Virus record (IMG/VR): IMGVR_UViG_3300001167_000001
Location: 1-58,225 of that record
DNA length: 58,225 nt
Strand: one strand, 5' to 3'
From: a virus
This document shows, in pieces, positions 144 to 58,225 of this stretch (its first letter is position 1; each line of letters starts with the position of its first letter). The notes below the pieces were generated by a model. That model was not told where the DNA came from, ran no database searches, and was given only the letters and a program-made list of their open reading frames with translations. The position numbers and the translations under genes are program-made.

Positions 144-166
144 ATACCCAATGAGGGGCGCACCCG

Positions 167-2381: not shown

Positions 2382-4813
2382 TGCGTAGATTTCTAGCCGC
2401 CTCAGCAGTACTGCTCTTTACGGCGTTCCCCGCGCTCGCGCAGAACGCCATCACTCTGCCGATCGCCGCGAACGCGGTCGCCGACTTAGGCAACGGCCCT
2501 ATCAAGGTCCGCATGATCGCGGGTAACGCATCAATTTTCACGGCACAAGGATCTGGCACTGGCAGCACGTCGGGTTCGTCCACAGCACTGACTTTGACTG
2601 CGACGCCGGCAACGCCACCGCTCGTTGGTGGCCTGATTTCCGGCAGTGGCATCACGTCAGGAACGACGGTCGCAGCGTACAACGGTACAACGGGCGTAAC
2701 GCTGTCGGCGGCCATGACTGTAGCCGGCGGTACGACGGTTTCATGGGGCGCCGCGTGTCCATCAACGCCACCTAGCAGCGTAATTCAGGCGTCGCCTTCG
2801 GCCGACGGCTATGTGATGTACACACAAGCGCGCGTGTGTGCAGTTTCACCGGGTGGCCCGGTTAACACGCTTTTGATTTCTCCGGTTTTTCAGGATAGTC
2901 AAGGTGGAAGCGGCAGCGGGAACGTAAATGGGCCGGCAACATCGATCGTAGGAGGCGTCGCGGTATGGAAAAACGGGGCTGGAACTTTACTCGCAGACGG
3001 TGCAACAGATGACGGATTTTTTGGTTCAGGTCGTCCATGGGCCGATATTAGGGCCTACGGCGCTAAAGGCGATGGTGCGACGGACGACACAGCGGCGATA
3101 ACAGCGGCGTATAATCAGCTTGCCGCAATTGGTGGCGGTGACCTATTCTTCCCGCCAGCACCTAACGGTCTTTATTGCACCTTTACTGGAATAACGATTT
3201 CCAACGGCAACGTGCATTTGAGATTCGCCGCCAACGGCGCGGCTTCAAATGGAATCAGTTCTTTAAGTTCTTGCGGCCACGATGTCACGACGTTGAATTT
3301 GAACGCCGGCTCTATCATACTGGACTACGCAAATATCATCGGCGATGGGTATGGCGCGACGCACCCGGCACTGGATTTCGGTCCAAGTTGCGGCGGTTGC
3401 AAAATGCACTTCGGCAGCGTCAGCGGCGGCACTTCTCCGGTATTGATCGAAGGCGTTGATGACCGTATCGAAAACGTCAACGTTGCTCCAGGTTACGGCA
3501 CTGCATCGATTAAGATCATCAATGGCGCGACGTATTTAGATCATGTTTCAGCCGATCTTAGCCCCCCGGTCTACACGCTGACTAATGCCAATTTCAGCGG
3601 CGGCGCCGCGTCGTGGGCGGCAACCCATGCCTATTCTGGTTCGGTGACTGTCTCAACACAGGGATTTTTTATTCAGCTTGTAACGGCAAGCTGTACTAGC
3701 GGTGGCAGCGCGCCGACGCTGAAATCGTACGGAACAAACATTACGGACGGTACTTGTACGTGGAAATTATTGTCACCTGGAACTTATTACAGTGTACAGG
3801 TCGATACCGGGGCCAGCGCAGTCTATCTGAACAACGGCGATAGTAGCGGGCCTTTTGTGGCAGGAGTCGGCGTTACAAACACAAGTGCAGGCACGGCACC
3901 GGGTGGCATCACCGTTGAAAATTGGAATTTCGGGGCTAACCTACAGGCTGGAATTTACGCTCATGACGGCAATACGCTTTCGGTTTCAGACTCTACACTG
4001 AATGGATGCATCTATGGTGGCTGTGCTGGTATTTATACTTTAGGGTCGTGGACCGGAGTCGTGAATGCGAGCAGTAACTTAATTGTTGGTGAACAGGCCG
4101 GCATCGATTTGACCGTCGGCGGTGGCGACACCATCGTCGGCAACACCATCGTTGCCAATGTAACCGGCGTGCTCGTCTCCAACAATTATGCGAATTTCAA
4201 CATCAACAACAATAATTTTTATAACGCGGCGTACGGCGCCAATTCCGGTAACGATATTACGATCGGTACGGGCGCGATACACTGTAATGTCATCGGCAAC
4301 AGTAGCAACGGCGGTACTTTTAGTACAGGGGCGTGCAAAGCATTCGCCAATGACGGTTCTGTCGTAAGTTACACCAACGGTGGCACCAACGCCACGTCGC
4401 TTGCGGGGGCGCAGGCAAATTTGTTGATCGGAACATTAATGAGCGTTCCGGCTACTGTGAATTTTGCGGTGGCTGGTGATTATGCGATCGCGGTCCCACT
4501 TCCTGCGGGATTCACACAATTTAGAGCCGACGATATTGTCATATCGCAGTGTAGTGTATCGCTTTCTGGCGCCACATTCGGTCTATTCACGGCAACCGGA
4601 GGCGGTGGCGCGGCGATCATCACGGCAGGTGCTACTTCGAACGTAACAAACAATACCGCTAATACAAATAACAACATGCAATTCGGCGCCGGCTTTATTA
4701 ATAACATTGGTACGGAGGCGTACACACCAGTTAGCGGAAATGTCCAATTTCGTGTTGGTTCAACGGCTGCAGGAACGTGTTCTGTGGCGTTTCAATATAA
4801 ACCTGTGCCATGA
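2369..4813 (+). CDS. Tailspike / depolymerase with pectate-lyase-type right-handed beta-helix (814 aa; start GTG 2369 or 2381)
   Basis: WADIRAYGAKGDGATDDTAAITAAY motif (Pectate_lyase_3-type) followed by repetitive N/G/I/V beta-helix-like sequence. N-terminal about 160 aa are paralogous to the 52245..52820 product. Signal-like N-terminus FLAASAVLLFTAFPALA|QN. Confidence 0.7.
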   Translation: MEFLVRRFLAASAVLLFTAFPALAQNAITLPIAANAVADLGNGPIKVRMIAGNASIFTAQGSGTGSTSGSSTALTLTATPATPPLVGGLISGSGITSGTTVAAYNGTTGVTLSAAMTVAGGTTVSWGAACPSTPPSSVIQASPSADGYVMYTQARVCAVSPGGPVNTLLISPVFQDSQGGSGSGNVNGPATSIVGGVAVWKNGAGTLLADGATDDGFFGSGRPWADIRAYGAKGDGATDDTAAITAAYNQLAAIGGGDLFFPPAPNGLYCTFTGITISNGNVHLRFAANGAASNGISSLSSCGHDVTTLNLNAGSIILDYANIIGDGYGATHPALDFGPSCGGCKMHFGSVSGGTSPVLIEGVDDRIENVNVAPGYGTASIKIINGATYLDHVSADLSPPVYTLTNANFSGGAASWAATHAYSGSVTVSTQGFFIQLVTASCTSGGSAPTLKSYGTNITDGTCTWKLLSPGTYYSVQVDTGASAVYLNNGDSSGPFVAGVGVTNTSAGTAPGGITVENWNFGANLQAGIYAHDGNTLSVSDSTLNGCIYGGCAGIYTLGSWTGVVNASSNLIVGEQAGIDLTVGGGDTIVGNTIVANVTGVLVSNNYANFNINNNNFYNAAYGANSGNDITIGTGAIHCNVIGNSSNGGTFSTGACKAFANDGSVVSYTNGGTNATSLAGAQANLLIGTLMSVPATVNFAVAGDYAIAVPLPAGFTQFRADDIVISQCSVSLSGATFGLFTATGGGGAAIITAGATSNVTNNTANTNNNMQFGAGFINNIGTEAYTPVSGNVQFRVGSTAAGTCSVAFQYKPVP

Positions 4814-4880
4814 AGTACGTGCTGAAATTCAACGCGACAATAGCTTTATCTACGGTAGGGATAGATTAAGTAGGATATTA

Positions 4881-5168
4881 ATGATTATCGACGCAGGAAC
4901 TGTAGCTGCCGGGGTTGCCGCCTTGAACCTAGTACTCACAATCGGCGGCGGTAGTTTCTTTGCTGGCAAGCTGACCGGCAAAATTCAGCGCATAGAAACC
5001 GACGTGAGGGAAACGAAAGGCTTGCTTATCACATCCGCAGTCGAAGCCGATCGGCTGCGGCGTGCGGAAGCTGACATTCACAGCGTGGAAATGGACGTTC
5101 GGAATCTGCGCAAGGGCGTCGGCTGGATAAATGACGCAGGCGCGAAGGGTGTCAATCGGGAGTATTGA
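4881..5168 (+). CDS. Small membrane/coiled-coil protein (95 aa)
   Basis: ATG 4881 in frame within tracked ORF 4707..5168. Hydrophobic N-terminus (AAGVAALNLVLTIGGGSFFAG) then a charged helical region. Confidence 0.5.
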   Translation: MIIDAGTVAAGVAALNLVLTIGGGSFFAGKLTGKIQRIETDVRETKGLLITSAVEADRLRRAEADIHSVEMDVRNLRKGVGWINDAGAKGVNREY

Positions 5169-5174
5169 ACTTTC

Positions 5175-5197
5175 TGCCGCTTTGCGGCATTGTTTAG
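5175..5197 (+). terminator. Weak Rho-independent terminator candidate
   Basis: TGCCG-cttTG-CGGCA hairpin followed by TTGTTT, just after the 5168 stop. Confidence 0.3.
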
Positions 5198-5227
5198 CAC
5201 CATGTCTAAAACCTAGGAGAGAAAACC

Positions 5228-5647
5228 ATGAGTGATCTAAAGGGCGGCCTTCAGGGCATGTTCGACGTGCTGAAGGGTGTGGAAGAACGCGCTCGCAAGC
5301 TGAAGAACCAGAACCTTGCGGACATTGCAGCGTCGGCGCACGGTCGCGTGAAGCAGCTCATCGACCACCCCGACACCGAGCTGGTGGACGAGAGGAAAGA
5401 CCAAGCGCACCCCGGCAACCCGCTGTACGTCGCACCCGCGACCAAGGACGAAGCGATTGCCAAAATGCGAGCGGACGGTGACGCTGACCCGGAAGGCACG
5501 GCGAAGCTGAATTGGCCGCACCTGTTTGAGCCGGGGGCCGCCGGCGGGTTTGCTCGCGCGCCGCAGCAAGAGCCGGGTGCTCAGCAGTGGCCTGGACAAC
5601 CGCAGTCCCGGCCGCTCGGCGCTGACGAATACCGGCGCGACCGTTAA
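5228..5647 (+). CDS. Hypothetical protein (139 aa)
   Basis: AGGAGAG 7 nt upstream of the ATG. Charged N-terminus, P/G/Q-rich C-terminus. Confidence 0.6.
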   Translation: MSDLKGGLQGMFDVLKGVEERARKLKNQNLADIAASAHGRVKQLIDHPDTELVDERKDQAHPGNPLYVAPATKDEAIAKMRADGDADPEGTAKLNWPHLFEPGAAGGFARAPQQEPGAQQWPGQPQSRPLGADEYRRDR

Positions 5648-6427: not shown

Positions 6428-7053
6428 CCGGATTTGACCAAGGCACCGTCCAAGGTGGGGTATTTGCCCAAACGAAACAGTTTGGCTCGATCTTGCGCGG
6501 TTTCGGGCCGCCAGTACCAGGGGCCGGTGTTGTCGGGGATTTGTACATTGACGTACAGATGTGGTTTCTGTACGAAAAACGCAGCGCAGAGGGCATTGAT
6601 CCTTGGGGCCATTATTTGTTTGCCATTCCGGCGCAGTATCAGTCTGGTTTGAATTGGTTTAGTTCTTCGCTTCCGACAAATAATTTCGGTGCGAACGGCG
6701 ATTACTGTCTGCTTTGGGGCGGTTTTAATAACTACGGACTCCAGCCGTCTTTTTGTGGCCCGAATGTCAACGGTTATTGGCCCGAGAGTGGCGATGGCCC
6801 GGATTTGTTGCTTGATACGACAGACACGGGTTTCACAATCCCTGTCGATTCGTTGACCGAAGGCCCATTGGTTCCTTTTAGCAATTCGTGGCAGACCATT
6901 GTTGTTGGCGTCGATACGGAATATCTTTTGTCCATTCCGGTGTCACAGCTCCCGAACACACCTGTGCTTGAATGTGGGTTGCAGTCGCCGCCAGTTGTTG
7001 TGGCCGTAGCCGTCAACCCACTGTACGCCGCTGAAGACGAGCACGACATATGA
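6424..7053 (+). CDS. Fibre-tip-like protein, paralogue 1 (209 aa)
   Basis: GAGVVGDLYIDVQMWFLYEK motif (GxGxxGDxYID..LYxK, a common tail-fibre tip motif). Paralogous to 7492..7968 at both the N- and C-termini. Confidence 0.6.
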   Translation: MTGFDQGTVQGGVFAQTKQFGSILRGFGPPVPGAGVVGDLYIDVQMWFLYEKRSAEGIDPWGHYLFAIPAQYQSGLNWFSSSLPTNNFGANGDYCLLWGGFNNYGLQPSFCGPNVNGYWPESGDGPDLLLDTTDTGFTIPVDSLTEGPLVPFSNSWQTIVVGVDTEYLLSIPVSQLPNTPVLECGLQSPPVVVAVAVNPLYAAEDEHDI

Positions 7054-7553: not shown

Positions 7554-7968
7554 CAACGGCACAACCCAGAGCGGCGTGTTTGCGCAGACGAAGCAATTTG
7601 GTCCGGTATTGCGCGGCACGGGCGAACCTGTGCCGGGAGCCGGCGTTGTTGGCGACGTGTACATAGACACACAAACTTGGTTTTTATACGCGAAGCGATC
7701 TAACGACAAAACGAGTCCGTGGGGTAATTATCTGTTCGCGGTGCCCGCTACTTATCAAGCCGCATTGAATTGGTTTAGCTCTGCGCAGCCAACAAACGAC
7801 CTAGGGTCGAACGGCGACTATTGCTTGCTTTGGGGCGGGTATCCGAATTACGGGCTTCAACCGTCTATACTAGGACCAAAAGCGGCCGGCGTATGGCCTA
7901 CCAATCCCGTAGCGGTCGCAGTCGCGCTCAACCCGCTGTATACAGCTGAGAACGAATATGCCGTATAA
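7492..7968 (+). CDS. Fibre-tip-like protein, paralogue 2 (start uncertain: GTG 7492, TTG 7507 or ATC 7540)
   Basis: SGFDNGTTQSGVFAQTKQFG...GAGVVGDVYIDTQTWFLYAK parallels paralogue 1. The 5' end overlaps the HNH gene. Confidence 0.6.
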   Translation: MTIACLTFTSVQWEAAISGFDNGTTQSGVFAQTKQFGPVLRGTGEPVPGAGVVGDVYIDTQTWFLYAKRSNDKTSPWGNYLFAVPATYQAALNWFSSAQPTNDLGSNGDYCLLWGGYPNYGLQPSILGPKAAGVWPTNPVAVAVALNPLYTAENEYAV

Positions 7969-25874: not shown

Positions 25875-26519
25875 ATGGCAGCAGCGGCAGGGGCAGCATC
25901 GCCGTTCGGCGCCGGCCTTGGTGGCGTCATCGGCGGGGAACTCGCAAGCCAGGACATTACCGCTGGCCAGAATGCCGTCAACAACAATACGGCGGCTGCG
26001 ATAGGAAATACGCAGCCATACAACCTATTTGGTCAGTCGTTCTTGAATCCTACCAACAACGCAATTACCGACGCGCAGACCTTTGCGGGTAGTACGCAAG
26101 GCTACAATCAGTTTATGTCCGGCTACACGAACACGCCGGCTGCGCAATACCAGCTTCAGCAAGCGGACCAAGCACAAAACAACAGCGCCGCTGCGAAGGG
26201 CGGCTTACTCTCTGGCTCAAATGAACGCGCGCTCGGCACCATCAACAACGGAATTGTTGCTCAGAACGCGAACACCGCGTACAACGAATATTTGTCTGGC
26301 AATAGCCAGCAATTCGGCCAGCTCGAAAGTGCGCTCGGCAATATGTTCCAAGCGATCGGCGTGGGGCAGACAGCGACCGGCCAAGATGTAAGTGCCACCA
26401 ATTCGCAGAACGCAGCCACGGCAACGCTGACAGGCGATCAAGCGAAGGCTGGCATGGCGAAGGGCAGCGGCTTGGGGTCTATTTTCAGCGGACTTGGTTC
26501 AATGGCGATGATGGCCTAG
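25875..26519 (+). CDS. Q/N/G/A-rich virion (ejection/internal) protein candidate (214 aa)
   Basis: ORF with AAGAGG SD. Composition resembles podovirus internal proteins. No catalytic motif. Confidence 0.4.
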   Translation: MAAAAGAASPFGAGLGGVIGGELASQDITAGQNAVNNNTAAAIGNTQPYNLFGQSFLNPTNNAITDAQTFAGSTQGYNQFMSGYTNTPAAQYQLQQADQAQNNSAAAKGGLLSGSNERALGTINNGIVAQNANTAYNEYLSGNSQQFGQLESALGNMFQAIGVGQTATGQDVSATNSQNAATATLTGDQAKAGMAKGSGLGSIFSGLGSMAMMA

Positions 26520-27034
26520 TCGCGTACGATCGAATAAATAAAGCAATCCTGCGGTTCTGTACTTACATTAGGGAAAAATTCAAACCTACGCAAGACGCCT
26601 TCGCACGTAGCACCCATGCGCTCAGTTACGCGCTGGGCTGGAATGTTGTCAACGTGAATGTATGTCCACAGCCGCCACGTTTGAGGGTGCGTAAAAATCC
26701 ACTGCACAAACGGCCGGCAGAACTCGCGACCGGCGCCGCGCGCTTTCCAGCCGGGACGGAACATAATTGACATGGTTGCTTGATGCCGGCTGACTTCCAA
26801 GCCGATGATGCCTAGAATCTCGTTGTTAGAGCAAACGGCCTGCCATTTCGCGACGCTGTTGTGATATCGCTCTATGAGCTGCGTTGCTTCGTCCACGGTC
26901 TTGTGCGTACGAAAGCCCATGTAGCGCGTCACGTCGGGGTTGCCTGTCAGTACGAATAAAGCGGGGCCTTCCCATGGATTCAAGTCGCGAAGGGTGAAGC
27001 GACCGACTTGCGCGTTGGTCATGGCGCGTTCCAA
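26516..27034 (-). CDS. GNAT-family N-acetyltransferase (RimJ/RimL-like, 172 aa)
   Basis: FTLRDL...ILGIIGLE...ATMSIMFRPGWKARGAGREF...HVDNIPAQRVTERMGA fits the Acetyltransf_3 layout. Confidence 0.6.
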   Translation of the reverse strand: MERAMTNAQVGRFTLRDLNPWEGPALFVLTGNPDVTRYMGFRTHKTVDEATQLIERYHNSVAKWQAVCSNNEILGIIGLEVSRHQATMSIMFRPGWKARGAGREFCRPFVQWIFTHPQTWRLWTYIHVDNIPAQRVTERMGATCEGVLRRFEFFPNVSTEPQDCFIYSIVRD

Positions 27035-27588
27035 GGAAACAACTGTTTCGGTTTAGCTAATCGTTCGTATCGCGTGTACGGCGCAGCTTTCGGTCCCCAT
27101 ACCGTCCATATGCAATTAAAGTACGGCCTTCCGGCGCCTGTAAAATCCGGTTTCCAACATAACGCGTAAATCGCTTCGGGCAGGCGACGGTTCCAAAGTT
27201 TAGTACGGTTAGCAGCATGCCATAGATTAACGTTCACAAGCATAGCGACGTACGGCGTGTCAAGGTCCAGCGCGTGCTTTATGAACGCCGATACGCTGCT
27301 GCCGAACGGCGGGTTAGTGACAATAGCATCGGCGCGACGCCACGGAGTTTTTAGGAAGTCAATTCCGCCCGTACCGTAACCTCGATCAATCAAATCTGTA
27401 CCAACAACTTGAAAACCAGAGTGTTCAAGAATTCTTGCAATTCCGCCGTCGCCGCAACTTGGCTCCCACACCGTACAAGGCCAGTTCGTAAGAGTTGGTA
27501 ACAGCGCCAATGTGCATTCGATTGGCGTCGGGTAAAAATCATTTTCTCGCCGCTCGCCACCGTTGTTGGCTGCTTGCAGAATCGTCAT
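27019..27588 (-). CDS. DNA N6-adenine (amino-)methyltransferase (189 aa)
   Basis: DFYPTP, motif I EPSCGDGGI, motif IV IVTNPPF. Confidence 0.7.
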   Translation of the reverse strand: MTILQAANNGGERRENDFYPTPIECTLALLPTLTNWPCTVWEPSCGDGGIARILEHSGFQVVGTDLIDRGYGTGGIDFLKTPWRRADAIVTNPPFGSSVSAFIKHALDLDTPYVAMLVNVNLWHAANRTKLWNRRLPEAIYALCWKPDFTGAGRPYFNCIWTVWGPKAAPYTRYERLAKPKQLFPWNAP

Positions 27589-27595
27589 GTGATTG

Positions 27596-27940
27596 TCAAA
27601 CGCTCGCTTTCACAGCTTCTTGATACAATTCAAAGCAGCGCGTCATTTCGGGACACTCTTTGCCCTTTGCTTCATCGCAAACAACCCAGCACCACTCGCG
27701 CGGCTTTAGGGCTTCAATAAATGCCATGCCTGCTTTGCGCGTCTTAAATCGCGTGCGCCCCAAACTCCTACTTGTACGGATGTGCGTTACGCACCATTGC
27801 GATTCGTCAAATTCAATTCTTGCGGTGCCTTGAAATAGAGGATGCGTCAGCGCGAGAGGCGATCCTTCGTATGAAACATATCCTACGCAATCAATTGAAA
27901 CGTCGTTTTTAAGCTTAAGTTTGAAATTAATTTGCATCAT
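27596..27940 (-). CDS. Hypothetical protein (114 aa)
   Basis: ATGATG at 27940 overlaps the polymerase TGA. Confidence 0.5.
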   Translation of the reverse strand: MMQINFKLKLKNDVSIDCVGYVSYEGSPLALTHPLFQGTARIEFDESQWCVTHIRTSRSLGRTRFKTRKAGMAFIEALKPREWCWVVCDEAKGKECPEMTRCFELYQEAVKASV

Positions 27941-30741
27941 TTCCGCATCCGCTCGCTCTCGTACCCTTCGCAATCCAACGGCAGCCCCGAAGTCCACGAA
28001 CGCGGACGCCGCATAATCTCACGCATTTGTTGCGACCGTACAGCAGCAACGTCGGCACGCGCAAGCGATAAAATCGAATCGTACACGTCCAAGATCAAAA
28101 CCACGTCAGGCAGCTCGCGCTCTATATCGGCTTCGGCCGCCGTCACAAGATCCCGCGTCATGGACTGGCAGTTATGTACCAAAAGAAAGTGCCCCGACCG
28201 CGTACGTATCGTAAAGCGGCTCCGTGGGCCACAATCCAGCAAATCGTAAACCAACTCTGATGATTTCAAGATCGTTAATTTTTCTGCGATTGAGCATATT
28301 GGCTTGGCGACTGATAAATCGGATGTTTCCGGGCTCGTAATTCCCGTCGTTATCTTTTCGGTCCATTTCAAAAGCCGGGTTATCGAAGTTCGGCAGTGTC
28401 GAAACGTACTCGATAAAATTTCGCGTGCCGCCCTTGCCGCGCCAAAGCCAGAACACGGAAACACCCCTACCGCCGTAGTGCGGCCAGCTCTTAACTTTGG
28501 GGTTTGTACATCTGGAAACTGCGTCAGATAGTTGCCGCATAAGTCTATTTTGTACGGATGCTGACAGCCCGAAATCGCGGCCGGTGCTGGCATCGTGCCA
28601 ACTCCGCACGTTATTTCGAACGCATACAGTACAGCCCGTAAAAGTTGCGTTACGGAAATCGCTGCGGCGTTTAATTTCTTCCGCGCTGCCGCAGTCGCAT
28701 TTAACAAGAACGTCCATGCGCTTACCGCGTCCTTCGTGGCGCGGAACCCAGCCGGTAACGATGACGTTGCCAAATCGGTCGCCAATTTCAATTTGCTCTG
28801 CGACAGGGCGCCCCAGCTTTGCCACGTCTGCGTACCGCCCTGTTCGGAGCACAGTATCAAATGGTCCGACGTGGCGCGGGTTCCACATACCTCCGTTACA
28901 GCTTTGTTTCCTTGACATGTGGCCCCTTCCTGCGTAACCCATTCGACGCCATCCCATACTAGATCGTTGGCGGTCACGGCGTCAATCCTTTTGAAACCCG
29001 TACTTGTCAGTACCTCCGTATCGCCGGCAAAACAGGCAATCTCTAAAAGGCTGCCACCAAAAGCTTTCTGTCTAAGCATCGCGCCGAACTTGGCTCTAAA
29101 AAACGCCATTTCGCCGCCGTACGTAATGTGCGCGGAGTAGTGCGGCACGGCGCGGCCGGACGGCAACAGCATCCATACAGTGCCGTGGCTGTCCTTTTGA
29201 AATGCGACTTTGCCGGCCGGAAATATGCGGCCCGGCTGTTCGTAAATTGCGAACTTGAAAGCATCGGCGAGCGCGTACCAGAGAGATACTAGCAGCGGGT
29301 TTGCTTGCCGGTAGCCGTCAATATCAGAACGGGCTTTGATTTCATCTATGTTAATGCCACCTTTACGTAGGTGGGCTAAAAAGGTTTTCCAACCTAGTTG
29401 ATAATTGCCGCCAAGTGTAACGTTTTTATATATGGTGTATTCTTTCAGGTGGTTCTTTTTGGTCCAGCCTTCGGGCCATCCGCCCATTTTTATGGCGTTG
29501 TATATGTACGGATTTTTAGTCTTGTCTGCGATCACGCTCAGGCGTTCAGTATCGCCGGCCATCCACATAGCCAGCCGATATTCCGCGCCTGATAAGTCAT
29601 TGTCGCAGATCATCCAGCCCGGCGGGGCCACAATGCAGCTCCGCAAGCAATCGGTCAGTGCAAGATTGTTATATTTAAATCCGGCTTTAAGACCCTGGAT
29701 AACGCTGTCGATTGTTGGGCGCCCGTCTTCCCCGTCGTACTTACCAGACGGACGGGCAATGTTAAAAAGGTTGGCACCTTCGGACGTACCGCGACCTGAC
29801 CGCGCGCCGAAATACCGCGTAGCGTCTTTATAGAAGCCGTTGACGTGCCGATCTAGCAACGCTTGCGCCTTCAGCGGTGCCGAACCGCCTCCAGATTGCA
29901 ACAGCTCCAGAACGATCCGTACGTCGGGGTGCAGGTTTTCATCGGCCAGTTTTTCAGCGACAATATGCTTTTGCGTGCTTTCCAGCCCGGCAGCGCGATT
30001 GCCACTGTTGCACCAATCCATAATGCGCTGGCGCTGCGACAGCTTCGTTACCGCGTTCTGCGTCAGCTCCATTAATGTCGCGGTACTCTCTTGCTCGATT
30101 TCCTGCCGCCGTATCGCAATCGCGGTTGCCAAGTGTACATCGACCGGCAAACCAATTTCGTTTTTGCACCATGTACGTTCAAAAATCAGGCGTTCATCCG
30201 GCGTAAGCGGCGGCAGCCGGACGTCCAAGTCAATAAGGCAATCCACGTCAACGTCGTTGTACTCCAGCAATTCACGGAATACTTGTACGTCTTCATTAAA
30301 CGTGCCGTCCCGCTGCGGCCGGCAAGTCTTCATGACGAGTTCGCGCCCGCGCGGGTCTTTGCCCCGGATGCCAAGCGTTTTGCAAACTTCGTCCAAGCCG
30401 CCCGGCAGCGCCAGTGATTGCGCCCGCGCCATTGTGCAGTCTATTTTCGATAGCGGCAGATCAAGGAAAGGATTGACCGCGCGCAAAATACTCACGTCAA
30501 AGTTTGCATGGTGGGCGACGAATCGGCGGCATTGCCGCACATCTGCGTACAGGTCCGCGAGTGTGTGCGTGCCTAAGTTCGGATGTACGGGGCAGGCGCG
30601 TTTACGTACGCCGCGAAACTGCCAAACGACCGACGTTATTCCGGTGGAAGGATCGGCAGCGTAGCGACGCGCGCCGGCCTTTTTAAGATCGCAGCGACTC
30701 CGCGTCTCGAAGTCGGCCGGTAGATCGTCAGGGTGTGGCAT
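27937..30741 (-). CDS. Family-A DNA polymerase with 3'-5' exonuclease domain, interrupted by an intein (934-aa precursor)
   Basis: Exo I DFETRS, Exo II HHANFD, Exo III YNDVDVD. Pol motif A CDNDLSGAEYRL, motif B KNVTLGGNYQLG, motif C ILDVYDSI. Intein lies between ...LLEIA and CQSMTRD. Confidence 0.85.
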   Translation of the reverse strand: MPHPDDLPADFETRSRCDLKKAGARRYAADPSTGITSVVWQFRGVRKRACPVHPNLGTHTLADLYADVRQCRRFVAHHANFDVSILRAVNPFLDLPLSKIDCTMARAQSLALPGGLDEVCKTLGIRGKDPRGRELVMKTCRPQRDGTFNEDVQVFRELLEYNDVDVDCLIDLDVRLPPLTPDERLIFERTWCKNEIGLPVDVHLATAIAIRRQEIEQESTATLMELTQNAVTKLSQRQRIMDWCNSGNRAAGLESTQKHIVAEKLADENLHPDVRIVLELLQSGGGSAPLKAQALLDRHVNGFYKDATRYFGARSGRGTSEGANLFNIARPSGKYDGEDGRPTIDSVIQGLKAGFKYNNLALTDCLRSCIVAPPGWMICDNDLSGAEYRLAMWMAGDTERLSVIADKTKNPYIYNAIKMGGWPEGWTKKNHLKEYTIYKNVTLGGNYQLGWKTFLAHLRKGGINIDEIKARSDIDGYRQANPLLVSLWYALADAFKFAIYEQPGRIFPAGKVAFQKDSHGTVWMLLPSGRAVPHYSAHITYGGEMAFFRAKFGAMLRQKAFGGSLLEIACFAGDTEVLTSTGFKRIDAVTANDLVWDGVEWVTQEGATCQGNKAVTEVCGTRATSDHLILCSEQGGTQTWQSWGALSQSKLKLATDLATSSLPAGFRATKDAVSAWTFLLNATAAARKKLNAAAISVTQLLRAVLYAFEITCGVGTMPAPAAISGCQHPYKIDLCGNYLTQFPDVQTPKLRAGRTTAVGVFPCSGFGAARAAREILSSTFRHCRTSITRLLKWTEKITTGITSPETSDLSVAKPICSIAEKLTILKSSELVYDLLDCGPRSRFTIRTRSGHFLLVHNCQSMTRDLVTAAEADIERELPDVVLILDVYDSILSLARADVAAVRSQQMREIMRRPRSWTSGLPLDCEGYESERMRK
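28171..29034 (-). mobile_element. Intein (288 codons) in the DNA polymerase
   Basis: Block A CFAGDTEVLT, block B TRATSDHLIL, block G FLLVHN followed by +1 Cys. Codon positions checked against the DNA (TGT 29034..29032; AAC 28173..28171; TGC 28170..28168). Confidence 0.8.
28172..28957 (-). CDS. HNH homing endonuclease encoded out of frame inside the intein (conserved core about 28280..28795; true start uncertain)
   Basis: IGDRFGNVIVTG..KCDCGS..CTVC; WPHYGGRGVSV; FEMDRKDNDGNYEPGNIRFISRQANMLNRR (phage HNH family pattern SxDRIDNDGNYEPGNCRW...NNRR). The frame differs from the polymerase frame by 2 nt. Confidence 0.7.
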   Translation of the reverse strand: MGWRRMGYAGRGHMSRKQSCNGGMWNPRHVGPFDTVLRTGRYADVAKLGRPVAEQIEIGDRFGNVIVTGWVPRHEGRGKRMDVLVKCDCGSAEEIKRRSDFRNATFTGCTVCVRNNVRSWHDASTGRDFGLSASVQNRLMRQLSDAVSRCTNPKVKSWPHYGGRGVSVFWLWRGKGGTRNFIEYVSTLPNFDNPAFEMDRKDNDGNYEPGNIRFISRQANMLNRRKINDLEIIRVGLRFAGLWPTEPLYDTYAVGALSFGT

Positions 30742-52244: not shown

Positions 52245-52820
52245 ATGAAGACTTTCACTGCTAGACTTCGCGCTGCGTTGGCTGCACTGGCTTTGCTGGC
52301 GCCGGCTCCCGCACTGGCTTTGCTGGCGCCGCTGCCCGCGCTTGCGCAAACCGTCGTACAAGTCCCCGTCAACGTGAATGCGCGTGCGGTCGCTGACTTG
52401 GGCAACGGGCCAACCGAAGTCCGGATGATCCAGGGCAGCATGGGGCTCTTTACGGCTCAGGGCTCTGGCGTCGGCAGCACGTCGGGTTCGTCCACCGCAC
52501 TTACGCTGACGGCGAGCGCCGCAGCCAACCCGCCTTGCGTCGGCTGCATCATTTCCGGCGTCGGCATTACGTCGGGCACTACTGTCGCCGCGTTCAACGG
52601 CACGACCGGCGTTACGCTCTCCGCAGCGATGACCGTTGCGGCCTCTACGCCGCTCGCATGGGGCCAGGCGTGCCCGTCCGCGCCGCCTTCGGCGCCGCTC
52701 GCGCTGATACAGGCCGCCGTCGGTTCCGATTTCCCAATGTACACGCAAGCTCGCGTGTGCGCGTATGGCGGGACTGGTCCTGGCGCGTTGTACACGCAAT
52801 ATCCCATCGGAGCGCACTAA
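52245..52820 (+). CDS. Signal-peptide-bearing protein consisting of the tailspike N-terminal module only (191 aa)
   Basis: Residues about 35-185 align with residues about 25-165 of the 814-aa tailspike (ADLGNGP..VRMI.G....FTAQGSG.GSTSGSSTALTLTA...SGITSGTTVAA.NGTTGVTLSAAMTVA...MYTQARVCA). 21-bp unit repeated at 27-bp spacing (52284..52304, 52311..52331) in the signal peptide. Confidence 0.65.
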   Translation: MKTFTARLRAALAALALLAPAPALALLAPLPALAQTVVQVPVNVNARAVADLGNGPTEVRMIQGSMGLFTAQGSGVGSTSGSSTALTLTASAAANPPCVGCIISGVGITSGTTVAAFNGTTGVTLSAAMTVAASTPLAWGQACPSAPPSAPLALIQAAVGSDFPMYTQARVCAYGGTGPGALYTQYPIGAH

Positions 52821-52843
52821 ATACCCAATGAGGGGCGCACCCG

Positions 52844-53155
52844 ATGGTTGCCAATCCTATAAAGACGATACCGCGAAGCTATCAGTCCTGGGTCAATCTC
52901 GCCGTCACGCCAGCAACCGATTTTGAGCTGGATGCGGGTAGTTACGGACTCACGGTAGCTACTGCCGGCTTCACCAGTTACCAGCTCCAGAGATTGCTGC
53001 CTGACGGGGTGACGTACACGCCTGCCATGCCAGTGGCGGCCGCGGCTGGTTATACTGTGCTTGATCTGCCGGCGGGGCGGTACAGCATGGTTGTTGTCGG
53101 CGCGACGGCGTTTACTGGCTTGATCGAGAAAATCGATACGGGGCGCGCACGATGA
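52844..53155 (+). CDS. Second copy of 167..478
   Basis: Identical translation. Confidence 0.6.
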   Translation: MVANPIKTIPRSYQSWVNLAVTPATDFELDAGSYGLTVATAGFTSYQLQRLLPDGVTYTPAMPVAAAAGYTVLDLPAGRYSMVVVGATAFTGLIEKIDTGRAR

Positions 53156-54072
53156 AAAAATTTCTATTCGCCGCGCTATTGATGTTGGGCGCGCTACCCG
53201 CGAATGCTCAGCAGCATACCGATGCTCTGATCGTATCGGCGTGCGGTACATTGCCGGTTCCGTACGTCGCCGGGACTTATAATTACGTGACGATGGATAC
53301 GACGGGGAAGTTGTGCGATAGCGGCAGCGGAGGCGGTGGCGGCGGTACTCAGAACGTCAACCTTACTCAGATATTGGGCGCCGCACCGAGTGCGACAAAT
53401 CCGCTGTGGGTATCTCCTGCGACCGGCGCGACGTTCCCTGTTAGTGCAGCATCGCTGCCGCTGCCGACCGGCGCGGCAACGCAGACGACACTCGCGGCCA
53501 TCCTCGCAGCACAAGGCGCGGCGCCTGCACAACAGACCGGCGCGACGGTCGGTATTGTTGCCGGATCGGCGGTTATCGGTAAGGTCGGCATAGATCAGAC
53601 GACGCCGGGAACAACCAATGCCGTATCGGCGACGAATTTTCCCAGCACGGTCGCGACGGGTACAGGTGCTCAAGGTGCGACCGTTCCGCGCGTCACGGTC
53701 GCAACCGATCAAGCCACCAATGCGGGCGCCGCGTTGGTCAAGGGCGGCGTTGGCGTCGTCAATGGAGGCAGCACTTATCAGGCTGTGGCAGCATCGCAGA
53801 CCGCAACGGTCCTCCAAACATCGACCGGGGCAATCGGCGATTATCTTTCGCATTGTGTGATCTATCCGACCTCCACATCGCCGGGCGTCGTGACAGTATT
53901 TGATAATACAAACGCTGCTGGTACCAACGTCATCGCCTTTCCTGGTGGTGCTAGTAGCGTGTCGAACCTTGTACCAATCGCCGTTCCAGTTGGCGCAGTT
54001 AGTACCGCTGGAGCGTGGAAGGTGACGACTGGCGCGAACGTGTCGGCTGTCTGTTACGGGAAATTCAGCTAA
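53152..54072 (+). CDS. Second copy of 475..1395
   Basis: Identical translation. Confidence 0.65.
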   Translation: MKKFLFAALLMLGALPANAQQHTDALIVSACGTLPVPYVAGTYNYVTMDTTGKLCDSGSGGGGGGTQNVNLTQILGAAPSATNPLWVSPATGATFPVSAASLPLPTGAATQTTLAAILAAQGAAPAQQTGATVGIVAGSAVIGKVGIDQTTPGTTNAVSATNFPSTVATGTGAQGATVPRVTVATDQATNAGAALVKGGVGVVNGGSTYQAVAASQTATVLQTSTGAIGDYLSHCVIYPTSTSPGVVTVFDNTNAAGTNVIAFPGGASSVSNLVPIAVPVGAVSTAGAWKVTTGANVSAVCYGKFS

Positions 54073-55058
54073 TGCGCCGCGTCGTCGGCTTTTTTCTGTT
54101 GGCGCTCGTTTCTTTGTTGCCTGAAACTATTTGTGCGCAGGCAATTCTTCCGGGATTTCCGCCGGGGGTTTTCACTAACCGCGCGGCGCTCGATCCGGCA
54201 CCTGCGGGGGGCTTTCAAGGCCCCGGCGACATCACGTCGGGCGCCATTGCATTCTATTCCTGCGGCCGGGCCTACAATGCGGCATATGCCGCAGGAGCAA
54301 ATCCAGCCTGCGATCTCGTCGATACCGGCACAGGGCTTGCGACCTGCACGATTTCATTTGGCACAAACGGCCTTGCTAATTTAACAGCCGTGGCCTGCCC
54401 GACAGGGGCACCGACCGTCAACGTCGTGACATTCTGCGCGGTGACTCACCCGTCAGGATGCAGCCTGACTAAGATGTACGACCAGACCGGCACCGGCAAT
54501 CATGTGGTGCAGGCGACGCTCGCCAATATGCCGGTGCTGACGTTCAGTGCGCAGAATGGGTTGCCGTGTGCGGCGGGAACGGGAAATGCGGCGATGCGAC
54601 TCGCAACGGCGGGCAGCATTTCGCAATCTGCGCCATTTAGTGCGACGGCGGTTACGGAGAGAACCGGAAGTTTTACGACGACGCAAAAGATAATCTCGAA
54701 CGGGGCCAACGCCAGTACGTTTAATTTTACGGCGAGCGCGAACAGCATATCTTCGGCGCTCGGCAGTTCAGCGGCCGTGACTTTAACCGCCGCAGATAGT
54801 TCGTTTCATGCGCTGCTAGGAGTTGCGAGTGCGACCGCCCCGCTATTCGCGGTTGACTCAAGCGCCAATACTTCGACCACGACAACTGGAACAACCGCTT
54901 TGGCAGGCAGTCAATTTCTCATGGGACGCAGCACGGGGGTACAGGCTCTTCTTGCCGGCTTCGTCTGCGAAGTCGGCATCTGGCCAGCCGATCTCAACTC
55001 ATCCTATCAAGCCATGCTCGCCAATATGCGCAGCGCGACCAATGGGTGGAATTTTTAG
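54072..55058 (+). CDS. Second copy of 1395..2381
   Basis: Identical translation. Confidence 0.6.
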   Translation: MRRVVGFFLLALVSLLPETICAQAILPGFPPGVFTNRAALDPAPAGGFQGPGDITSGAIAFYSCGRAYNAAYAAGANPACDLVDTGTGLATCTISFGTNGLANLTAVACPTGAPTVNVVTFCAVTHPSGCSLTKMYDQTGTGNHVVQATLANMPVLTFSAQNGLPCAAGTGNAAMRLATAGSISQSAPFSATAVTERTGSFTTTQKIISNGANASTFNFTASANSISSALGSSAAVTLTAADSSFHALLGVASATAPLFAVDSSANTSTTTTGTTALAGSQFLMGRSTGVQALLAGFVCEVGIWPADLNSSYQAMLANMRSATNGWNF

Positions 55059-57490
55059 TGCGTAGATTTCTAGCCGCCTCAGCAGTACTGCTCTTTACGG
55101 CGTTCCCCGCGCTCGCGCAGAACGCCATCACTCTGCCGATCGCCGCGAACGCGGTCGCCGACTTAGGCAACGGCCCTATCAAGGTCCGCATGATCGCGGG
55201 TAACGCATCAATTTTCACGGCACAAGGATCTGGCACTGGCAGCACGTCGGGTTCGTCCACAGCACTGACTTTGACTGCGACGCCGGCAACGCCACCGCTC
55301 GTTGGTGGCCTGATTTCCGGCAGTGGCATCACGTCAGGAACGACGGTCGCAGCGTACAACGGTACAACGGGCGTAACGCTGTCGGCGGCCATGACTGTAG
55401 CCGGCGGTACGACGGTTTCATGGGGCGCCGCGTGTCCATCAACGCCACCTAGCAGCGTAATTCAGGCGTCGCCTTCGGCCGACGGCTATGTGATGTACAC
55501 ACAAGCGCGCGTGTGTGCAGTTTCACCGGGTGGCCCGGTTAACACGCTTTTGATTTCTCCGGTTTTTCAGGATAGTCAAGGTGGAAGCGGCAGCGGGAAC
55601 GTAAATGGGCCGGCAACATCGATCGTAGGAGGCGTCGCGGTATGGAAAAACGGGGCTGGAACTTTACTCGCAGACGGTGCAACAGATGACGGATTTTTTG
55701 GTTCAGGTCGTCCATGGGCCGATATTAGGGCCTACGGCGCTAAAGGCGATGGTGCGACGGACGACACAGCGGCGATAACAGCGGCGTATAATCAGCTTGC
55801 CGCAATTGGTGGCGGTGACCTATTCTTCCCGCCAGCACCTAACGGTCTTTATTGCACCTTTACTGGAATAACGATTTCCAACGGCAACGTGCATTTGAGA
55901 TTCGCCGCCAACGGCGCGGCTTCAAATGGAATCAGTTCTTTAAGTTCTTGCGGCCACGATGTCACGACGTTGAATTTGAACGCCGGCTCTATCATACTGG
56001 ACTACGCAAATATCATCGGCGATGGGTATGGCGCGACGCACCCGGCACTGGATTTCGGTCCAAGTTGCGGCGGTTGCAAAATGCACTTCGGCAGCGTCAG
56101 CGGCGGCACTTCTCCGGTATTGATCGAAGGCGTTGATGACCGTATCGAAAACGTCAACGTTGCTCCAGGTTACGGCACTGCATCGATTAAGATCATCAAT
56201 GGCGCGACGTATTTAGATCATGTTTCAGCCGATCTTAGCCCCCCGGTCTACACGCTGACTAATGCCAATTTCAGCGGCGGCGCCGCGTCGTGGGCGGCAA
56301 CCCATGCCTATTCTGGTTCGGTGACTGTCTCAACACAGGGATTTTTTATTCAGCTTGTAACGGCAAGCTGTACTAGCGGTGGCAGCGCGCCGACGCTGAA
56401 ATCGTACGGAACAAACATTACGGACGGTACTTGTACGTGGAAATTATTGTCACCTGGAACTTATTACAGTGTACAGGTCGATACCGGGGCCAGCGCAGTC
56501 TATCTGAACAACGGCGATAGTAGCGGGCCTTTTGTGGCAGGAGTCGGCGTTACAAACACAAGTGCAGGCACGGCACCGGGTGGCATCACCGTTGAAAATT
56601 GGAATTTCGGGGCTAACCTACAGGCTGGAATTTACGCTCATGACGGCAATACGCTTTCGGTTTCAGACTCTACACTGAATGGATGCATCTATGGTGGCTG
56701 TGCTGGTATTTATACTTTAGGGTCGTGGACCGGAGTCGTGAATGCGAGCAGTAACTTAATTGTTGGTGAACAGGCCGGCATCGATTTGACCGTCGGCGGT
56801 GGCGACACCATCGTCGGCAACACCATCGTTGCCAATGTAACCGGCGTGCTCGTCTCCAACAATTATGCGAATTTCAACATCAACAACAATAATTTTTATA
56901 ACGCGGCGTACGGCGCCAATTCCGGTAACGATATTACGATCGGTACGGGCGCGATACACTGTAATGTCATCGGCAACAGTAGCAACGGCGGTACTTTTAG
57001 TACAGGGGCGTGCAAAGCATTCGCCAATGACGGTTCTGTCGTAAGTTACACCAACGGTGGCACCAACGCCACGTCGCTTGCGGGGGCGCAGGCAAATTTG
57101 TTGATCGGAACATTAATGAGCGTTCCGGCTACTGTGAATTTTGCGGTGGCTGGTGATTATGCGATCGCGGTCCCACTTCCTGCGGGATTCACACAATTTA
57201 GAGCCGACGATATTGTCATATCGCAGTGTAGTGTATCGCTTTCTGGCGCCACATTCGGTCTATTCACGGCAACCGGAGGCGGTGGCGCGGCGATCATCAC
57301 GGCAGGTGCTACTTCGAACGTAACAAACAATACCGCTAATACAAATAACAACATGCAATTCGGCGCCGGCTTTATTAATAACATTGGTACGGAGGCGTAC
57401 ACACCAGTTAGCGGAAATGTCCAATTTCGTGTTGGTTCAACGGCTGCAGGAACGTGTTCTGTGGCGTTTCAATATAAACCTGTGCCATGA
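55046..57490 (+). CDS. Second copy of the tailspike 2369..4813
   Basis: Identical translation. Confidence 0.7.
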   Translation: MEFLVRRFLAASAVLLFTAFPALAQNAITLPIAANAVADLGNGPIKVRMIAGNASIFTAQGSGTGSTSGSSTALTLTATPATPPLVGGLISGSGITSGTTVAAYNGTTGVTLSAAMTVAGGTTVSWGAACPSTPPSSVIQASPSADGYVMYTQARVCAVSPGGPVNTLLISPVFQDSQGGSGSGNVNGPATSIVGGVAVWKNGAGTLLADGATDDGFFGSGRPWADIRAYGAKGDGATDDTAAITAAYNQLAAIGGGDLFFPPAPNGLYCTFTGITISNGNVHLRFAANGAASNGISSLSSCGHDVTTLNLNAGSIILDYANIIGDGYGATHPALDFGPSCGGCKMHFGSVSGGTSPVLIEGVDDRIENVNVAPGYGTASIKIINGATYLDHVSADLSPPVYTLTNANFSGGAASWAATHAYSGSVTVSTQGFFIQLVTASCTSGGSAPTLKSYGTNITDGTCTWKLLSPGTYYSVQVDTGASAVYLNNGDSSGPFVAGVGVTNTSAGTAPGGITVENWNFGANLQAGIYAHDGNTLSVSDSTLNGCIYGGCAGIYTLGSWTGVVNASSNLIVGEQAGIDLTVGGGDTIVGNTIVANVTGVLVSNNYANFNINNNNFYNAAYGANSGNDITIGTGAIHCNVIGNSSNGGTFSTGACKAFANDGSVVSYTNGGTNATSLAGAQANLLIGTLMSVPATVNFAVAGDYAIAVPLPAGFTQFRADDIVISQCSVSLSGATFGLFTATGGGGAAIITAGATSNVTNNTANTNNNMQFGAGFINNIGTEAYTPVSGNVQFRVGSTAAGTCSVAFQYKPVP

Positions 57491-57557
57491 AGTACGTGCT
57501 GAAATTCAACGCGACAATAGCTTTATCTACGGTAGGGATAGATTAAGTAGGATATTA

Positions 57558-57845
57558 ATGATTATCGACGCAGGAACTGTAGCTGCCGGGGTTGCCGCCT
57601 TGAACCTAGTACTCACAATCGGCGGCGGTAGTTTCTTTGCTGGCAAGCTGACCGGCAAAATTCAGCGCATAGAAACCGACGTGAGGGAAACGAAAGGCTT
57701 GCTTATCACATCCGCAGTCGAAGCCGATCGGCTGCGGCGTGCGGAAGCTGACATTCACAGCGTGGAAATGGACGTTCGGAATCTGCGCAAGGGCGTCGGC
57801 TGGATAAATGACGCAGGCGCGAAGGGTGTCAATCGGGAGTATTGA
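57558..57845 (+). CDS. Second copy of 4881..5168
   Basis: Identical translation. Confidence 0.5.
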   Translation: MIIDAGTVAAGVAALNLVLTIGGGSFFAGKLTGKIQRIETDVRETKGLLITSAVEADRLRRAEADIHSVEMDVRNLRKGVGWINDAGAKGVNREY

Positions 57846-57904
57846 ACTTTCTGCCGCTTTGCGGCATTGTTTAGCACCATGTCTAAAACCTAGGAGAGAA
57901 AACC

Positions 57905-58225
57905 ATGAGTGATCTAAAGGGCGGCCTTCAGGGCATGTTCGACGTGCTGAAGGGTGTGGAAGAACGCGCTCGCAAGCTGAAGAACCAGAACCTTGCGGAC
58001 ATTGCAGCGTCGGCGCACGGTCGCGTGAAGCAGCTCATCGACCACCCCGACACCGAGCTGGTGGACGAGAGGAAAGACCAAGCGCACCCCGGCAACCCGC
58101 TGTACGTCGCACCCGCGACCAAGGACGAAGCGATTGCCAAAATGCGAGCGGACGGTGACGCTGACCCGGAAGGCACGGCGAAGCTGAATTGGCCGCACCT
58201 GTTTGAGCCGGGGGCCGCCGGCGGG
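57905..58225 (+). CDS. Second copy of 5228..5647, truncated by the window end
   Basis: Identical sequence up to the window edge. Confidence 0.6.
   Translation, partial: MSDLKGGLQGMFDVLKGVEERARKLKNQNLADIAASAHGRVKQLIDHPDTELVDERKDQAHPGNPLYVAPATKDEAIAKMRADGDADPEGTAKLNWPHLFEPGAAGG

Follow-up and report, generated by a model that had tools for sequence, protein, structure and literature searches.

A candidate intein in a phage family-A DNA polymerase gene with an HNH-like gene nested in a second reading frame

The polymerase gene, its insert and the nested open reading frame

The DNA analysed here (hereafter, "the window") is the whole 58,225-nucleotide (nt) stretch of IMG/VR record IMGVR_UViG_3300001167_000001 (positions 1–58,225), which contains a family-A DNA polymerase gene carrying an intein-like insert; within this insert, a second open reading frame (ORF) encoding an HNH-like protein lies in a different frame on the same strand. 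Because the first and last 5548 nt of the window (1–5548 and 52678–58225) agree with 0 mismatches, the window represents one whole phage genome of 52,677 bp, circular or terminally redundant, plus the overlap. The window has a GC content of 56.2% and encodes a terminase, a helicase, a primase and an exonuclease, along with a single tRNA gene (tRNA-Ile); its source is an uncultured tailed phage of 52.7 kb. No match to the polymerase gene was found among cultured phages by blastn, and the best polymerase protein identity to cultured phages (Xanthomonas and Burkholderia phages) was just 29%. A search of all six frames of the window identified one Hint copy and one nuclease copy.

A first-pass annotation of this DNA had described a 934-amino-acid (aa) polymerase ORF with a 288-codon insert, bounded by intein block A, B and G motifs and followed by a +1 Cys; all of these features and the insert boundaries hold (Table 1). 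The insert starts with CFAGDTEVLT and ends with FLLVHN, followed by Cys. Both C1 (29034-29032) and the +1 Cys (28170-28168) are invariant in 21 related inteins; block B corresponds to T55-S-D-H58 (RATSDH-LIL) and the terminal pair to H287-N288, with T55, H58 and N288 invariant and H287 nearly so in the related inteins. Further residues of the N-terminal Hint half that are invariant in the polymerase frame include W71, L82, A85, L88, A89, S91, L93 and P94.

Alignment with intein-free homologues placed the insertion exactly between A569 and C858, in agreement with the conserved polymerase insertion point that had been predicted; in a comparison with the polymerase of Salmonella phage Spp11, the site falls on the ExxxQ segment of family-A phage polymerases, immediately upstream of motif C. 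A protein search returned intein-free homologues of 644–656 aa and a few intein-bearing ones of 915–948 aa. Intein-free alleles read ...GGSLLEIA^CQSMTRDLV... (the caret marks the insertion point) and comprise exactly 569 + 77 aa, i.e., 646 aa. The closest intein-free allele (P0124, from locus L095) has exteins that are 95% identical to those of the window and co-linear with them at the nucleotide level (1941 nt each). At the DNA level, the empty site reads ...GGCAGCCTTTTAGAGATTGCC^TGCCAGTCCATGACGCGG..., with a P0124-type variant GCG^GCGCAGAGCCTT.

A Hint-domain match at the insert ends, which the first-pass annotation had named as a check, was obtained with a mini-intein profile built from the first 78 and last 42 residues of 21 sequences. 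All 14 PDB matches of this profile were Hint proteins, including the NEQ068 split polymerase intein (E = 5.4e-4, the best match) and PI-MtuI (E = 0.012); the profile also matched the Spl DnaX mini-intein over its full length (2.1e-3). Pfam and NCBIfam searches with the polymerase, the insert and the nested ORF gave no useful match, and Pfam searches with single sequences gave weak Vint and Hint_2 matches only. An AlphaFold2 (AF2) model of the intein in the polymerase frame, based on an eight-sequence alignment, reached a predicted local confidence (pLDDT) of 36.6 overall; the pLDDT of the centre (22–41, mostly below 35) is consistent with a linker that loops out, though the AF2 model is poor as a whole. 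The centre had been called featureless and S/T/A/L/R-rich; a bias is present but only moderate, as S, T, A, L, R and G together account for 57% of the central residues in the polymerase frame versus 45% in the exteins. Taken as sequence evidence, these features support an intein of the class-1 type, inserted at a conserved site of the polymerase.

Direct reading of the DNA confirmed that the nested ORF is offset by 2 nt from the polymerase frame and that it ends in a TAA stop sharing bases with the terminal His-Asn codons. Eight alleles that share the insertion site of the window were compared (the window plus L004, L005 and L009–L013); L004, L005–L008 and L009 are independent short-read contigs and L010–L013 are full polymerase genes. 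The TAA stop is found at the identical position in 8/8 of these alleles. An open polymerase frame combined with a +2-frame ORF ending at the His-Asn codons was observed in L004, L005–L008, L009 and L010–L013.

Table 1. Positions of features at the polymerase locus of the window, with the evidence for each.
Feature	Position	Strand	Evidence
Family-A DNA polymerase precursor ORF, 934 aa	27937..30741	-	ORF listing; phrog_17 (9.5e-51); homologues
N-extein, 569 aa	29035-30741	-	Intein-free homologues
C-extein, 77 aa, plus stop	27940-28170	-	Intein-free homologues
Intein, 288 codons/864 nt (polymerase residues 570-857)	28171..29034	-	Polymerase frame; alignment
N-terminal Hint half, ~codons 1-95	28750..29034	-	Polymerase-frame constraint at codons 1-60; conserved residues
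Central 196 codons (63-258), stop-free unconstrained linker in the polymerase frame	28261..28848	-	Omega 1.1-1.4; AF2
C-terminal Hint part, codons 259-288, SELVYDLLDCGPRSRFTIRTRSGHFLLVHN	28171..28260	-	Constrained in the polymerase frame
Maximal +2 (-1) frame ORF, 261 codons plus stop, HNH-like putative homing endonuclease	28172..28957	-	ORF listing; homologues; omega; AF2
Likeliest nested start (ATG, alternative-frame codon 39; 248-aa product)	28916..28918	-	Allele comparison (inferred)
Shine-Dalgarno-like GGAAGGGG, 4 nt upstream of ATG 28918	28923..28930	-	Sequence reading
Nested TAA stop (last base of CAT plus first two bases of AAC; His-Asn)	28172..28174	-	Sequence reading
Cys4 module (C74, C76, C96, C99 of the 248-aa product), CapR-homology-like zinc-ribbon, putatively DNA-binding	28622..28699	-	Conserved Cys; PF21817 in relatives
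Predicted beta-beta-alpha element, residues 183-210 (D186-R187...N198...N210; counterpart of the I-HmuI HNN motif with Arg for His)	28289..28372	-	AF2; alignment to 1u3e
Sigma-70-like TTGACG-18-TAGTAT within N-Hint coding, upstream of the nested gene (speculative)	28956..28985	-	Promoter scan

Constraint on the two frames and expression of the nested gene

The ratio of nonsynonymous to synonymous substitution rates (dN/dS, omega) was estimated for four alleles by the Nei-Gojobori method (NG86), and codon-position entropy was computed for eight alleles. In the N-terminal Hint region (codons 1–62), omega was 0.11–0.25 in the polymerase frame versus 0.7–1.45 in the alternative frame, while the centre (codons 63–258) showed omega values of 1.10–1.43 in the polymerase frame versus 0.14–0.33 in the alternative frame. 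For the C-terminal Hint part (codons 259–288), the polymerase-frame omega (0–0.34) and the alternative-frame omega (0.17–0.72) were not clearly separated. The proposed order of N-terminal Hint half, nuclease gene and C-terminal Hint half over two frames is borne out, and dN/dS switches exactly at the domain boundaries. The entropy analysis gave the same picture; the most variable codon position changes from polymerase position 3 to polymerase position 2 (i.e., position 3 of the alternative frame) at around codon 60 and returns at around codon 256. Codons ~46–90 presented low variability at all three codon positions, suggesting that both products are probably functional across this region and that it is under dual constraint.

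The polymerase frame contains 0 stops in the 196 central codons, while the third frame contains 15. Synonymous codon permutation of the nested ORF gave a mean of 3.9 expected stops (P(0) = 0.004), resampling with phage codon usage a mean of 7.0 (P = 2e-4), and mononucleotide shuffling a mean of 8.9 (P = 2e-4); the view that a frame of this length is unlikely to be open by chance therefore stands, and the rough guess of one stop per 25–30 codons was about right. The same stop deficit was found in five other sequences. Among 63 free-standing relatives of the nested gene, the frame corresponding to the one read by the host gene carries 3.5 stops per 100 codons, with no relative (0/63) having zero stops, and the other frame carries 6.6 stops per 100 codons; embedded nuclease genes have thus been purged of stops in the host frame. 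Host genes read the intrinsically stop-poor frame of the nuclease gene, and this may also explain the shared relative frame of the cases in the literature (see below) and of all but one of the loci found here. Together, the frame-specific omega values and the stop deficit support selection on both frames, as had been suggested, with each frame selected for a different thing; one is kept open and the other is kept coding.

For the start of the nested gene, the first-pass annotation had offered several codons, of which ATG 28918 is the best supported; it had missed ATG 28942, and its other option, frameshifting, found no support. ATG 28918 is kept in 7/8 alleles at the window site and is the first ATG past the last upstream alternative-frame stop in L010 and L013. 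Other alleles carry (A/G)GGGG 5–6 nt upstream of the start, compared to 4 nt for the Shine-Dalgarno-like run in the window. No slippery heptamer of the form X_XXY_YYZ is conserved among the alleles. Given the conserved ATG and the Shine-Dalgarno-like run, and given that no heptamer is conserved, we infer that internal initiation is the favoured mode of nested-gene expression. The sigma-70-like sequence upstream of the nested gene is built from conserved R-I-D and D-x-V-W codons, and similar sites are present in 5/8 alleles.

The nested protein and the distribution of the arrangement

The assignment of the nested protein to HNH endonucleases comes only from PHROGs (phrog_374; 6.3e-28) and from existing annotations by others. 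The nested-protein family comprises 1591 matches, most of which are free-standing proteins of 165–250 aa with no Pfam domain. An AF2 model of the nested protein, based on 101 sequences, reached a pLDDT of 81.8 and a predicted TM-score (pTM) of 0.66, with 120 residues at or above a pLDDT of 90; the model consists of a beta-rich N-terminal part, helices, and a strand-strand-helix element in which residues 183–187 and 199–203 form the strands and residues 204–210 form the helix. In an alignment of 101 family members, C74, C76, C96, R136, C137, Y148-G-G-R151-G, W159, R187, Y194, N198 and N210 were invariant and C99 was nearly so.

The N-terminal Cys4 module resembles the CapR domain (PF21817), which matched 11 of the 101 relatives (best match P0024, 6.3e-6, above the curated cutoff); the nested protein of the window itself had no PF21817 match. 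DNA binding has been shown for CapR of the V. cholerae PLE satellite, of which four-Cys mutants were tested, and the CapR module is common to the N-termini of putative phage homing endonucleases (PMC8096241). With regard to the C-terminal element, an HNH_3 match was found in only one of the 101 relatives (E = 0.043), and an NCBIfam search across the family yielded nothing meaningful. No PDB sequence match was found with the nested protein alone; the family profile matched only I-HmuI (E = 1.4), and in this weak alignment the D-R...N...N of the family is aligned to D-H...N...N of I-HmuI, with the invariant N198 and N210 opposite the two Asn residues. The nested-protein model had many matches among BFVD viral models annotated as HNH, AP2 or HTH homing endonucleases; the top match was a 247-aa "uncharacterized protein" of Salmonella phage LPSE1. 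These comparisons point to a putative nuclease with the modular build of a homing endonuclease, though not to a textbook HNH protein.

Two loci with other combinations of these modules were also identified. The 726-aa stop-free run of L091 (IMG/VR 3300036768_000843) contains two tandem HNH-like modules and, after them, a region in which an SPPY motif, as is typical of N6/N4 DNA methylases, occurs; this layout suggests that the HNH-like module may be recruited as a DNA-recognition unit. A 493-aa run in L071 (IMG/VR 3300021403_000004) contains three tandem Cys4 (CapR-like) modules followed by one C-terminal HNH-like module.

A tblastn search with the nested protein produced matches in 590 phage records, and the best of these matches underlie coding sequences (CDSs) labelled "DNA polymerase" or "intein-containing DNA polymerase precursor". 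Two of the phages, the Jerseyvirus Spp11 of Salmonella and MR14 of Pseudomonas, likewise have the homologous ORF at an offset of +2 from the polymerase CDS, and the annotated polymerase proteins of both phages contain a similar featureless stretch over the nested ORF. The arrangement occurs in about 155 records in GenBank, from Salmonella phages (Jerseyviruses in the cases checked) and from some E. coli phages, labelled either as plain "DNA polymerase" or as an intron. In Sodalis phage SO-1 (L094, NC_013600), gp39 ("HNH endonuclease", 2360–3118) is nested at +2 within gp38 ("DNA polymerase", 876–4064); judging from homology, gp38/gp39 would more likely represent the same intein with an out-of-frame nuclease than the annotated "type I self-splicing intron".

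Among the best 80 IMG/VR loci for the nested-protein family, 16–17 are embedded in family-A polymerase ORFs with the same Hint ends, and the frame offset is the same in all embedded loci but one. Counted in addition to the seven other alleles of the window site and to Spp11 and MR14, about 14 IMG/VR PolA loci, mostly at other sites, show the nested out-of-frame ORF. Besides the insertion point of the window, two further insertion points were found, both in motif B: GK(T/V/A)^C(I/E/V)LGLGY and GK..ILG^CGYGMG. No in-frame version was found among the 80 loci; the search gave three long runs in the HNH frame, none of which is an intein. The exceptional locus (L030; IMG/VR 3300009347_000009) has a PolA intein with the HNH-like ORF in the other relative frame (host minus HNH = 2), and its intein end (...VLVAN^C) is without the penultimate His. 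Another locus, L021 (IMG/VR 3300020513_000026), contains a second ORF (535-aa run) with an N-terminal Hint match (2.8e-23); no C-terminal Hint half was detected in this ORF, which may be either a second intein or a split one.

A survey of the best 120 polymerase clusters found the intein in eight and a mini-intein in none. Between the window and L010, the exteins are 93% identical while the nested proteins are 41% and the Hint ends 58% identical; between the window and L013, the corresponding values are 74%, 79% and 72%. Since extein and intein similarities disagree, these comparisons indicate horizontal movement of the intein, as would be expected of an actively homing element. The intein-free P0124 has Ala rather than Cys at the +1 position and, in this one pair, differs from the window at 35 positions in the 150-nt bin at the junction (-57 to +93) versus ~20 per 150 nt elsewhere; P0124 may represent a homing-resistant target variant. 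In an 81%-identical relative (L003; ENA ERZ25039540 contig_24924, positions 2203–4929), two indels interrupt both the polymerase and the nested gene, so that genes of 588, 186 and 107 aa are called. These breaks are probably long-read assembly errors, real decay being the less likely cause; a split gene was considered for L003 and rejected, because indel errors explain it most simply.

Interpretation, alternative explanations and related systems

The reading we prefer, with a probability of roughly 0.8, is that the insert is a mobile class-1 intein in a family-A polymerase and that its homing-endonuclease gene is a separate gene nested in the -1 (+2) frame. Ribosomes in the polymerase frame traverse all 864 nt of the insert, with selection keeping this frame stop-free, as the sequence shows. 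The two Hint halves (~codons 1–95 and 259–288) would then associate, while the ~160–190 residues read through the nuclease gene would loop out unstructured, and protein splicing would free a 646-aa polymerase with the length of the intein-free alleles. Splicing is expected because C1, T-x-x-H, H-N and the +1 Cys are conserved and the Hint ends are under purifying selection, and also because the polymerase is likely to be essential, a role that is itself assumed. Separate internal initiation, most likely at ATG 28918 behind GGAAGGGG, would yield a ~248-aa protein in which a CapR-like Cys4 module for DNA binding is followed by helices and, at the C-terminus, by an HNH-like beta-beta-alpha module. 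During co-infection, this protein would cut or nick intein-less polymerase alleles near ...LLEIA^CQS..., and repair would copy the intein into them; this homing step is suggested by the horizontal transfer and the sporadic distribution of the element. The most likely origin is the invasion of a mini-intein by a free-standing homing-endonuclease gene, in the one alternative frame that is naturally stop-poor, with the leftover stops purged afterwards. Such an invasion is supported by fractured genes, in which a free-standing endonuclease gene lies between the halves of a split intein (Dassa et al. 2009, PMC2677866) and thus occupies the position of an intein endonuclease domain, as does the separate nuclease gene in the window; in fractured genes the host gene is split and splicing occurs in trans, whereas here a continuous host ORF reads through the nuclease gene.

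Several points weigh against this reading. Splicing and nuclease activity are both predictions. The first-pass annotation had called the nested protein a "textbook phage HNH" endonuclease, a description that has to be abandoned; the nested protein has no HNH match in Pfam and no match in NCBIfam, Foldseek found no PDB match to its model at E < 1, and no His is invariant in the 101 family members, the general-base position being occupied by the invariant Arg187. On the side of the intein, the AF2 model is poor at the Hint ends as well (pLDDT 54–69 with the eight-sequence alignment), so that the argument for a Hint fold comes from a sequence profile with modest E-values. With regard to expression, ATG 28918 is missing in L005, which would need a downstream ATG; the Shine-Dalgarno-like run doubles as Gly-rich coding sequence of the polymerase frame (Q-x-G-G/A codons), and its conservation is thus not independent evidence; and internal promoter-like sites are no more numerous in the window than in shuffled sequences.

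A more far-reaching proposal, which we regard as rather unlikely in its combined form, holds that the nested protein is an uncharacterised catalytic variant of the beta-beta-alpha homing endonucleases, with an invariant Arg in place of the general-base His, and that the overlap also governs expression by tying a low nuclease output to the polymerase. Polymerase-frame ribosomes would override the internal start site and thereby limit the amount of nuclease made. If true, at least 150 GenBank records of Salmonella, Escherichia and Sodalis phages would contain the clade, for the most part without annotation or under the wrong label of an intron, and it would provide the most tractable system for studying out-of-frame homing-endonuclease expression and homing.

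The nested protein may instead be inactive as a nuclease and act as a sequence-specific DNA-binding protein, i.e., a domesticated or inactivated relative of homing endonucleases like PLE CapR that is retained for regulation or another phage function, while the intein spreads by recombination or by means of a nuclease acting in trans. This explanation, though improbable, would account for the Arg at the general-base position, for the lack of an invariant His and for the failure of Pfam HNH models and PDB folds to match; it also has a precedent in an experimentally shown DNA-binding repressor among the CapR-domain relatives, and L091 seems, from motif reading only, to fuse two of the modules to a methylase-like SPPY region. 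It fits less well with the co-transfer of the nested protein and the intein over divergent alleles, and with the absence of the nested protein from the nearest extein relatives, the signature that a homing driver would be expected to leave. The predicted beta-beta-alpha element, which can be aligned to the active site of I-HmuI, moreover has conserved D186, N198 and N210, and within the 80 viral loci sampled the intein clade is found only in family-A polymerases, at three conserved points close to the active site, as fits target-specific cleavage.

Homing-endonuclease domains often decay once fixed, and an ancestral in-frame HNH domain could have been frameshifted into a pseudogene; the need for a functional polymerase, in which stops would be lethal, would on its own account for the open polymerase frame. 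Decay is nevertheless highly improbable here, as all alleles examined, even at 41% aa identity, have an unbroken alternative frame, with omega at 0.14–0.33, as no in-frame relative was found among the 80 loci and no mini-intein allele among the 120 best polymerase homologues, and as the layout is common to phages with nested proteins that are just ~35% identical. We give equally little credence to programmed -1 frameshifting, by which the polymerase frame would yield a fusion of N-extein, N-terminal Hint half and nuclease. The nested ORF does lie in the -1 frame, and tblastn similarity in the alternative frame reaches the start of the ORF, but the X_XXY_YYZ heptamer is not conserved, the conserved ATG with its Shine-Dalgarno-like run is present, and free-standing relatives start near a conserved GxRFG motif.

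Two compensating indels, which would mask an ordinary in-frame HNH intein as a sequencing or assembly artefact, can be set aside as exceedingly improbable; indel-type frame breaks do occur in the long ENA contig L003, but at least 12 assemblies that are independent of one another have the identical layout, among them Logan contigs from short reads, assemblies from JGI and ENA and cultured phage isolates in GenBank, and the codon-position variability matches a two-frame model. A group I intron with an HNH ORF, removed at the RNA level, has next to no chance of being correct even though SO-1 gp38/gp39 is annotated in this way and such introns are known in phage polymerase genes (PMC3428280), because the polymerase frame is significantly stop-free in every allele, the insert lies between codons with a length that is a multiple of 3, the Hint motifs are under purifying selection in the polymerase frame, and an Rfam search of the insert, even at a permissive threshold, matched no intron family and produced only a chance sub-threshold match to a small RNA on the opposite strand.

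The first-pass annotation knew of no described intein organised in this way. Out-of-frame cases had been reported before, by Gorbalenya in 1998 and by the Gogarten laboratory in 2025–26, and the intein of the window is thus a new example of a recently described layout rather than a new kind; it is distinct from the described cases in its nuclease family, its abundance and its occurrence at several polymerase sites, and no description of a PolA intein with an HNH-like nested gene was found in the open-access papers searched. Inteins with an EndoVII-like nuclease in "frame 3" have been described in actinophages, together with the prediction that annotation overlooks such cases (bioRxiv 10.1101/2025.01.02.630785). 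Like the intein of the window, they carry the nuclease gene between the splicing blocks on the same strand at an offset of +2 ("frame 3"), have an open host frame whose reading is predicted to be unstructured, are sporadically distributed, and are proposed to originate from the invasion of an intein by a free-standing homing-endonuclease gene. The intein described here differs in its nuclease (a CapR-like Cys4 module combined with an HNH-like beta-beta-alpha module with Arg for His) and in its host gene, a family-A polymerase of phages of Gram-negative hosts with at least three insertion points; frame-specific dN/dS and stop purging are also quantified here.

A cyanobacterial dnaX intein with a LAGLIDADG gene as a "+2 ORF" has also been described (Phillips, DeSimone, Gogarten; bioRxiv 10.64898/2026.09.14.751524), in a preprint that credits Gorbalenya 1998 ("Non-canonical inteins"). 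The dnaX intein shares with the intein of the window the +2 relative frame, frame-dependent dN/dS, Shine-Dalgarno-like motifs upstream of the nested start, an in-frame linker predicted to be disordered, and the coexistence of intein-bearing and intein-free alleles. However, its host is cellular and its nuclease is of the LAGLIDADG type, while the element described here is found in phages and is HNH-like; mini-intein alleles of dnaX are common, whereas none was found among the 120 best polymerase homologues.

Another out-of-frame HNH is hidden in the ShiLan domain, an insert in a mycobacteriophage DNA methylase whose final four bases, TAAC, contain the TAA stop (Arsenault et al., Genes 2025, PMC11855218). 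Both cases present an out-of-frame ORF annotated as HNH in an insert that is open in the host frame, and the TAAC of ShiLan corresponds to cATAAc in the window; unlike the insert of the window, with its clear Hint ends, the ShiLan domain has no detectable splicing domain and is thought to be kept in the protein. I-HmuI (PDB 1U3E) and canonical, in-frame HNH inteins resemble the system described here in joining DNA-binding modules to a beta-beta-alpha module and in residing in phage replication genes, but the nuclease of the window is encoded out of frame rather than as part of the intein, and Arg invariably takes the place of its general-base His; the similarity of the nested protein to solved HNH structures is not significant in either sequence or fold.

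If the preferred reading of a mobile intein with a separate nested nuclease gene is correct, one piece of DNA serves, in two frames, both a protein element that splices itself and the gene for its mobility, with one frame only having to be open and the other having to be coding. The arrangement is common rather than a curiosity, as it occurs in the family-A polymerases of many phages and at several insertion points, and it points to genes that gene callers systematically miss; it also identifies a large family of His-less "HNH-like" proteins without Pfam annotation. Relatives in cultured phages offer a genetically tractable route to the translation of the hidden gene, to homing and to the effect of the linker on splicing.

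Directly downstream of the polymerase, the window contains a 133-aa ORF followed by a 189-aa ORF with an NPPF motif (methyltransferase-like) and a 172-aa ORF; the latter two (27019-27588 and 26516-27034, both on the minus strand) overlap by 16 nt. The 172-aa ORF occupies the place of an Acetyltransf_3 gene in relatives, and the intein-free relative L095 has an SNF2-like helicase gene downstream of the polymerase instead. Two repeats were also found elsewhere in the window: a 67-nt repeat (82% identical) at 2537-2603, within an 814-aa ORF, and at 52449-52515 (also 55214-55280), and a 151-nt direct repeat (72%) at 6600-6750 and 7716-7866, the copies of which are 1116 nt apart.

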